Assembly (NCBI RefSeq): GCF_003790525.1
Contig: NZ_CP033635.1
DNA from: Escherichia coli
Lineage (GTDB): Bacteria > Pseudomonadota > Gammaproteobacteria > Enterobacterales > Enterobacteriaceae
Length of the DNA: 64,000 nucleotides
Reading direction: 5' to 3' (one strand)
A program made the translations under genes and the position numbers. Under the pieces are notes generated by a model, which was not told where the DNA came from, did no database searches, and was given only the letters and a program-made list of their open reading frames with translations. This document shows, one piece after another, positions 55,405 through 55,543 of the stretch (position 1 is the stretch's first letter; every line of letters starts with the position of its first letter).

Positions 55405-55460
55405 CCATACAGAGGGTGAGCGACTGGACGATTAACGACATAAATTATTTACAGGGAATA

Positions 55461-55543
55461 GACGCTTACTCATCAGACACCTGGTATTTTTTATCTCAAA
55501 CCAGCGTGACTGATGTGTAAGCGTTGAAGTAAGGAGGCGATTA
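55461..55543. repeat. About 80-bp imperfect palindromic element, copy B (3' of paralog 2, abutting yieH stop)
   Basis: Arms GACGCTTACTCATCAG (55461-55476) and CTGATGTGTAAGCGT (55510-55524); extended similarity to copy A through GGAGGCGATTA. Confidence 0.7.

Follow-up and report, generated by a model that had tools for sequence, protein, structure and literature searches.

A probable transcript-end hairpin between the convergent genes espY4 and yieH at the right end of the Z5211-Z5214 island of Escherichia coli

The stretch of E. coli DNA analysed here, 64,000 nucleotides in length and referred to below as the window, matches E. coli FDAARGOS_497 and SMS-3-5 with 100% identity over the stretches tested. 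The genes pstSCAB-phoU, of which phoU ends at position 48122, are followed by a block of low G+C content (48123-55540) and then by yieH and adeP (Table 1). Three genes are found in this block, namely two large plus-strand ORFs, which have 33% amino acid identity to one another, and one 395-aa ORF on the minus strand. The RefSeq names of their counterparts are 'T3SS effector EspY4', 'type III effector protein' and 'pentapeptide repeat-containing protein', and a Pfam search of the island proteins gave sub-threshold pentapeptide matches only. EspY4 and EspY5 are type III effectors of EHEC O157:H7. Compared with O157, the amino acid identity is 78% for EspY4, 91% for the middle ORF, and 62% and 47% for the left large ORF against the split left ORF of O157 (Z5211/Z5212). 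Homologues of the 395-aa protein are all from E. coli.

In K-12 and UTI89 the same site between phoU and yieH is occupied by bglGFBH-yieLK-cbrCB. The island of the window is the known Z5211-Z5214 or EspY4-EspY5 locus ('bgl-Z locus type III'), which has been reported between phoU and yieH in about 19% of strains, the others carrying bglGFBH-yieLK-cbrCB (Sankar et al., 2009, PMC2646131). The Z genes were treated in that work as ORFans that 'presumably replaced' bgl, and neither repeats nor palindromes nor remnants figure in its text (Sankar et al., 2009, PMC2646131).

The effector genes are highly polymorphic within one species, with amino acid identities between lineages of 60-79% for EspY4 and 57-100% for EspY5 (loci L002, L005, L006 and L007 of our set). 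The island of L006 is a mosaic, in which the left module is 94-100% identical to the window (93.6% in the C-terminal half of espY5) and the right module 71-85%. In the RefSeq annotation of the identical strain (L001, 2145-4634) the left effector gene is divided into a 'frameshifted hypothetical' and a 'type III effector'; in the window this gene is one unbroken ORF of 836 codons (48528-51038; 829 aa from the ATG at 48549). Between glmS and pstS there are also four plus-strand ORFs (190, 243, 840 and 356 aa; 38316-43295). Judged by size and location alone, they resemble a fimbrial operon of the chaperone-usher type, where O157 has its long polar fimbriae.

Table 1. Genes, palindrome copies, repeats and gene remnants between phoU and adeP, in window coordinates
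Feature	Coordinates	Strand	Remarks
Ancestral REP element	48126-48165		Aligns with island-free Escherichia and E. albertii
Ancestral CCCGGT...ACCGGG hairpin	48167-48198		Aligns with island-free Escherichia and E. albertii
Probable cbrC 3'-terminal remnant	48212-48236	-	Last ~8 codons; 19/25 bases as in the cbrC 3' end of L011 and L008
Upstream repeat D3, copy 1	48377-48442		Repeat family D3
espY5-type type III effector gene	48549-51038	+	Continuous ORF from 48528
Palindrome copy A	51096-51159		Hairpin; linker 51160-51174
yieH remnant	51175-51284	-	Amino acids 106-128 at 51216-51284; tail (~amino acids 205-221) at 51178-51228; stop 51175-51177
cbrC 5' remnant	51286-51393	-	CbrC amino acids 14-49, in-frame stops; tblastn 61% identity, E 2e-10
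Pentapeptide-repeat / putative type III effector gene	51508-52695	-	395 aa; convergent with the espY5-like gene across palindrome A
Upstream repeat D3, copy 2	52827-52892		74% identical to copy 1
espY4-type type III effector gene	52978-55404	+	Stop 55402-55404; RefSeq start is ATG 52996; annotated in O157:H7 and other strains
Spacer, espY4 stop to hairpin B	55405-55460		56 nt; poorly conserved; weakly similar to spacer A
Palindrome copy B	55461-55525		65 nt, imperfect; 5' arm 55461-55485, 14-nt loop 55486-55499, 3' arm 55500-55525
Linker, hairpin B to yieH stop	55526-55540		15 nt (...GGAGGCGA); last island-specific bases
yieH	55541-56206	-	6-phosphogluconate phosphatase, 221 aa; from the ORF list and RefSeq annotation of FDAARGOS_497
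adeP	56373-57710	+	Right of yieH

At the right end of the island, the original prediction had a second palindromic copy running into the yieH stop codon, with accessory DNA joined to this core gene without a spacer. The 221-aa ORF and the RefSeq annotation confirm that TTA at 55541-55543 is the minus-strand stop codon of yieH, and copy B of the palindrome, which has its paralogue at copy A, does lie beside the gene, 15 nt from this stop. The DNA to the left of the stop is indeed accessory: similarity to bgl/cbr and to island-free genomes is lost between 55540 and 55541, and the description of the junction as lacking a spacer holds to that extent. This breakpoint was placed to the base by aligning the yieH flank with that of the bgl/cbr genomes K-12, UTI89 and HS-02, and similarity to the island-free Escherichia loci (E. 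whittamii L009, and L010) ends at exactly the same point. E. whittamii reads ...ACGCGATAA up to the stop edge and ATAAAGAAACCCGG beyond it (ATAAAG after the edge), and the window reads ...ACGCGATAA and then TCGCCTCCTTAC (TCGCC after the edge).

Most Enterobacteriaceae, as well as some Escherichia (E. whittamii L009, and L010), have yieH and phoU pointing directly at each other across about 100 nt. The island-free order consists of the yieH stop, 9 nt, a CCCGGT...ACCGGG hairpin, a REP element and the phoU stop. We infer that the edge of similarity at the stop codon is the limit of purifying selection on yieH, beyond which the sequence turns over, and not a site-specific joint. The coincidence of an island edge with a stop codon can therefore be explained by selection on the gene, and a recombination site is not needed. 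A possible similarity between Z-type and cbrB-type flanks past the stop (CTCC..TTACTT; K-12, E. albertii and E1V33) was rejected, being no better than that of shuffled sequences (p 0.27-0.99).

The two palindrome copies share 79 of 97 positions (81%; blastn E 4e-21; repeat families D4/D5), and the arms of the palindrome are mutually complementary (E 6e-7). The outer 15-bp stem is identical in A and B, and the loop and inner stem differ. The linkers have 13 of their 15 bases in common, including the nine nearest to the stop codon, and the similarity then runs past the stop codon (GGAGGCGATTA....GTTATA) into a yieH-like remnant at copy A. In five natural variants and on either strand, the core hairpin folds at -24 to -32 kcal/mol, with z-scores of -3 to -6 against shuffled sequences; copy B reaches -32 kcal/mol with a z-score of about -6 on either strand. 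Between Z-type lineages, conservation is 91-94% in palindrome B, 79-86% in the adjoining spacer and 71-83% in the C-terminal half of espY4. In each of three independent comparisons, palindrome B thus stands out as better conserved than the sequence on either side of it.

Another repeat of the island, D3, is found about 85-105 nt upstream of each espY start, and contains a CCAGGGT...ACCCTGG hairpin and a conserved AATGAGCnATTTTTTACAGTATTCA block that could be a promoter or a regulator site. A Shine-Dalgarno-like GGAGG with an ATG after copy A (51168-51181; an 18-codon ORF) was taken to be due to chance, as an ATG is lacking in copy B and the L005 and L006 lineages do not conserve the linker.

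The palindrome, searched for as a sequence of about 87 nt, occurs in 1108 of 5426 complete E. coli genomes. The number of places per genome has both a median and a maximum of two among these carriers, all at the present locus, and in 1104 of the 1108 the 3' end of espY4 is contiguous with the palindrome. If the sequence were core DNA it would be expected downstream of yieH in genomes lacking the island; it was not found there, but in the carriers only. Across 80 species-representative Enterobacteriaceae loci, none has the palindrome downstream of yieH except L007 (JAIJJM010000384.1), a 3.1-kb contig of a 'Collinsella sp.' MAG with an E. coli yieH (97% amino acid identity), the palindrome and espY4, which is evidently misbinned E. 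coli. A pattern scan of metagenomes gave the same context, on E. coli-type contigs, in 46/46 stretches with the palindrome. A phage search gave no match, and the sole 'plasmid' match of a plasmid search is a mislabelled 4.9-Mb chromosome. An Rfam search of 48000-56500 found no family for the palindrome, giving a sub-threshold REP/naRNA4 match at 48134-48195 and a chance miRNA match. The palindrome is island-specific and not a dispersed repeat.

Some carriers depart from the usual layout. Only one palindrome is present in 18 of the 1108 genomes. Strain 2013C-4282 (L005, 3904-4810) has an internal deletion and is without copy A, the yieH remnant and most of espY5. In the metagenome locus L118, espY4 is joined to an espY5 fragment, and the pentapeptide gene is missing.

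Next to copy A, gene remnants bear on how the palindrome came to lie beside yieH. The TAA of the yieH remnant is in register with the stop codon of the real gene, and its tail is collinear and in frame (...AVWKRRRSGITI and stop, compared with ...ALWKARGWNITR and stop). The middle part of the remnant is recognised by tblastn with 65% identity (E 6e-8). It is fused at about 51285 to a remnant of cbrC, with amino acids 14-49 of CbrC ending at 51286 and amino acid 106 of YieH starting at 51284. This cbrC remnant has 74-77% nucleotide identity to the cbrC of K-12, E. albertii and other Escherichia. At the other end of the island, a short stretch near phoU is probably the 3' end of cbrC, judging by its sequence; it shares 16/25 bases with E. 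albertii L012. The left end as a whole is collinear with the cbrC-hairpin-REP-phoU arrangement of E. albertii (70.6% over 136 nt, E 2e-13); in K-12, cbrC is followed by a different hairpin and then by yieK. The original prediction also spoke of a replacement at this locus, and a clean replacement of bgl/cbr does not hold, because remnants of cbrC are still present inside the island.

The order D3-espY-spacer-palindrome-linker-stop occurs twice in the island, with a spacing of 4365-4450 nt (families D3, D4 and D5). Since copy A is accompanied by an in-register yieH remnant that is fused to a cbrC remnant, the adjacency of palindrome and yieH predates an internal duplication. The yieH-cbrC joint is found in both the O157 and the L006 lineages, and the cbrC remnant in most metagenome copies of the island, so the joint is older than the diversification of the island. 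L005 retains the cbrC part only, a later deletion having taken copy A and the yieH remnant.

The presence of cbrC remnants and of a second yieH remnant within the island points to an ancestor that resembled E. albertii, lacked bgl and carried cbrC, followed by an internal duplication. An internal segmental duplication is the simplest reading of these sequences. The proto-locus would have had an E. albertii-like backbone (phoU-REP-hairpin-cbrC-...-yieH), with an espY/pentapeptide cassette between cbrC and yieH and with the palindrome already beside the yieH stop. A segment from about codon 106 of yieH to about codon 49 of cbrC (51286-55891, ~4.4-4.6 kb) would then have been duplicated, yielding a second espY gene, upstream repeat and palindrome, and the yieH'::cbrC' fusion remnant at ~51285. 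A later loss of a second pentapeptide gene and of the greater part of the distal cbrC may have followed, or the copy may have been inserted directly into cbrC; tandem duplication with deletion and duplicative insertion into cbrC are indistinguishable. Neither a single-module, pre-duplication locus nor a donor species was found among the 80 species-representative yieH loci, the homologues of the 395-aa protein and the 46 metagenome stretches.

The yieH gene itself also differs between the arrangements. The yieH of K-12 (L004, 3775-4440) has 79.6% nucleotide and 84.6% amino acid identity to the window allele, and is as distant from it as the genes of Citrobacter or Enterobacter. The nucleotide identity of the window yieH to that of other Escherichia species is 85-93%, with K-12 as the outlier, so the window appears to hold the vertically inherited copy, and the foreign sequence lies on the bgl/cbr side. 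Import of the yieH tail together with the island was ruled out, given this level of identity and a tail (TFTELAQLPALWKARGWNITR and stop) that is near to the enterobacterial consensus.

The point at which bgl/cbr genomes switch to window-like sequence varies, lying at 55546-55550 in HS-02, at 55605-55696 in UTI89 and beyond ~56320 in K-12. UTI89 (bgl type II) has 19 differences in 55541-55604 and is then 94-99% identical through yieH, the 94% block having a 5-nt indel. K-12 is diverged across all of yieH and the yieH-adeP spacer, to ~56320. The palindrome is without a counterpart in bgl/cbr genomes, and no crossover falls inside it.

Further observations were made on these haplotypes. HS-02 (L087; NZ_CP172818.1, 5925-6075) is a recombinant, found once in the 5426 genomes, in which a K-12-type bgl-cbrC-cbrB flank together with the stop and last codon is joined to a window-type yieH; the joint may represent either a genuine crossover, on 3 nt of identity, or a chimera of the assembly. 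About 3100 of the 5426 genomes have, like K-12, no megablast match to 55405-55700, and this suggests that most E. coli carry the K-12-type xenologous yieH allele. At the other flank, the last four phoU codons (48100-48122) of bgl-type genomes (L004 and L003) differ from those of the window and of island-free Escherichia (...KDSDK compared with ...KDPKE), and the bgl-type genomes are also without the REP element. It follows that the bgl island replaced both flanking gene ends and that the Z island kept the ancestral phoU end.

Both copies of the palindrome lie between convergent genes, copy B between espY4 and yieH, and copy A between the espY5-like gene and the pentapeptide gene. The stem-loop of copy B is 56 nt after the espY4 stop, which is further than its distance from that of yieH. 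When the 3' flanks of yieH were folded, a strong hairpin was found to start 1-17 nt after the stop in 12/12 cases (the two window copies, K-12, E. whittamii, L010, E. albertii, E1V33, Citrobacter, Enterobacter, Salmonella, Klebsiella and Silvania), with sequences that are unrelated between arrangement types. Because the palindrome is conserved above its flanks, and because an unrelated hairpin follows the yieH stop in every other arrangement, the palindrome is read as a transcript-end RNA hairpin. We consider it probable that the espY4-yieH junction, at the right end of the Z5211-Z5214 island, is a convergent spacer with a transcript-end hairpin that lay beside yieH before an old internal duplication.

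From its position, stability and conservation, we infer that the palindrome would be transcribed into a stable RNA hairpin which either creates the 3' ends of the transcripts or insulates them in the gap between the convergent genes. On the plus strand the hairpin may end or protect the espY mRNAs. On the minus strand, copy B would stop read-through from yieH and copy A that from the pentapeptide gene. The palindrome would in this way take the place of the ancestral hairpin, which the island has separated from yieH by 7.3 kb and which now lies next to phoU.

The strand on which the hairpin acts is less clear, with the espY-sense strand slightly favoured. The main rival is a purely yieH-sense element, that is, an intrinsic terminator acting only on the minus strand, for yieH at copy B and for the pentapeptide gene at copy A, to which the espY-sense strand is irrelevant. 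The position of the palindrome, 15 nt after the yieH stop and where every other arrangement has a hairpin, is in keeping with this, as is the minus-strand fold in its 139-nt context (z = -4.4). The minus-strand tail of copy A, UCUUUUUGU, is that of a typical terminator; copy B, which is the copy behind the live yieH, has only a weak U-tract (UCUAUUCCCU). The plus-strand tails, UGAAGUAAGG in copy B and UGACGUUGGG in copy A, have no U-tract, and a consensus terminator scan reported neither copy. The loop is of 13-14 nt. The plus-strand fold is at least as stable as that of the minus strand in 4/5 variants, the exception being L005, by 0.6 kcal/mol.

Substitutions in the stem also tend to go against a terminator confined to the minus strand. 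Among 24 distinct natural variants, seven stem transitions are C>T, which gives G.U pairs on the espY-sense strand and A.C mismatches on the other, and one is T>C. Pairing across the variants reaches 93% for the plus strand, compared with 86% for the minus strand. This asymmetry of 7 to 1 is suggestive and not significant (binomial p 0.07; Fisher p 0.13 against non-stem sites), and the sample was partly selected for fixed arms, as the metagenome variants were chosen by a pattern that fixes parts of the arms; it was therefore not used to assign the strand. Taken with the weak tract of copy B, these observations lead us to regard an exclusively minus-strand terminator as doubtful.

Two further explanations are improbable. 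In the first, the palindrome is a functionless, neutral leftover of the duplication, whose arms have been kept alike by gene conversion, either within the palindrome or from one copy to the other; a variant of this has it acting at the DNA level, as a protein-binding site. The outer stems of A and B are identical in sequence and not merely in structure, which could reflect gene conversion instead of selection; the Rfam result and the lack of double compensatory changes (strict covariation) also fit. Against this, the palindrome is the local peak of conservation in all three lineage comparisons, and the hairpin has kept about 24 pairs over the same A/B divergence in which the yieH and cbrC remnants decayed to ~74-77% with deletions and stops. 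The second, to which we give an equally low probability, goes beyond a generic terminator and sees in the palindrome a dedicated cis-acting RNA element of the EspY effector mRNAs, a 3'-UTR hairpin involved in stability, RNase III processing or secretion-coupled expression. On that reading the hairpin has also been preserved, on the espY-sense strand, across an ancient duplication and in the face of extreme coding divergence. If the hairpin does act on espY transcripts, it would offer a small, testable handle on the expression of poorly understood effectors.

Least probable, and largely refuted, is the proposal made at the outset that the palindrome is a recombination or integration site (att-like, attC-like or the end of a mobile element) bounding the island upon replacement of bgl/cbr: it is 15 nt from the loss of similarity to all other arrangements, it is at the 3' end of both espY modules as a cassette-associated site would be, and the HS-02 crossover is only 4-9 nt inside the yieH coding sequence, but HS-02 is a single genome, 48123-55540 has no integrase, transposase or other mobility gene, both copies are in the island and none is on plasmids or phages, no attC-like R boxes (GTTRRRY/RYYYAAC), flanking direct repeat or target-site duplication were seen by eye, copy A has its own yieH remnant and is internal to the duplicated unit, with homology continuing into yieH and cbrC remnants, and the haplotype crossovers are scattered in and beyond yieH. 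The original prediction thus stands as to the flanking gene yieH and the accessory DNA, and is not supported as to the palindrome being a recombination boundary.

These results correct the picture of a well-studied polymorphic locus, in that the EspY4/EspY5 island is not a simple replacement of bgl. Subscription literature aside, the hairpin duplication, the remnants of yieH and cbrC inside the island and the implied bgl-less origin of the Z locus appear to be undescribed so far. Current understanding is not overturned by them; the finding is modestly informative and mechanistically not new.

The present locus is like the Z5211-Z5214 locus in its site between phoU and yieH, its two paralogous large ORFs with a middle ORF on the opposite strand, and its low G+C content. 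The frequency of carriage is also close, at 19% of strains in the earlier survey (PMC2646131) and 20.4% of E. coli genomes here. The yieH and cbrC remnants and the duplicated hairpin inside the island go beyond that account (PMC2646131). Two units in direct orientation that agree in their internal order, and a single chimeric joint (cbrC codon ~49 / yieH codon ~106), resemble a segmental tandem duplication, although a very old one, with espY paralogues that are 33% identical and remnants at ~75%. A plain tandem duplication would also have left a second pentapeptide gene and the greater part of cbrC on the left side of the first unit; both are absent, which calls for either a subsequent deletion or duplicative insertion into cbrC.

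As an imperfect intergenic palindrome at gene 3' ends, and a potential stabiliser of mRNA, the hairpin resembles REP/BIME and ERIC elements. It differs from these and from MITEs in having at most two copies per genome, both in the island, and in showing no REP similarity or Rfam match; a true REP element is present in the window beside phoU. The palindrome is neither a REP, an ERIC or a MITE, nor an att or attC site. It is closer to intrinsic or bidirectional terminators and 3'-stabilising hairpins, being a stable stem-loop a few nucleotides after a stop codon, between convergent genes, and copy A is flanked on one side by an A-tract/U-tract, as terminators are. It departs from the usual terminators in its long stem (~24 pairs with bulges), its large loop, the missing U-tract in the espY sense and the weak tract of copy B in the yieH sense. 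With no U-tract on one strand and a marginal one on the other, the hairpin would nevertheless seem to behave like the terminator or 3' stabiliser of a convergent gene pair.
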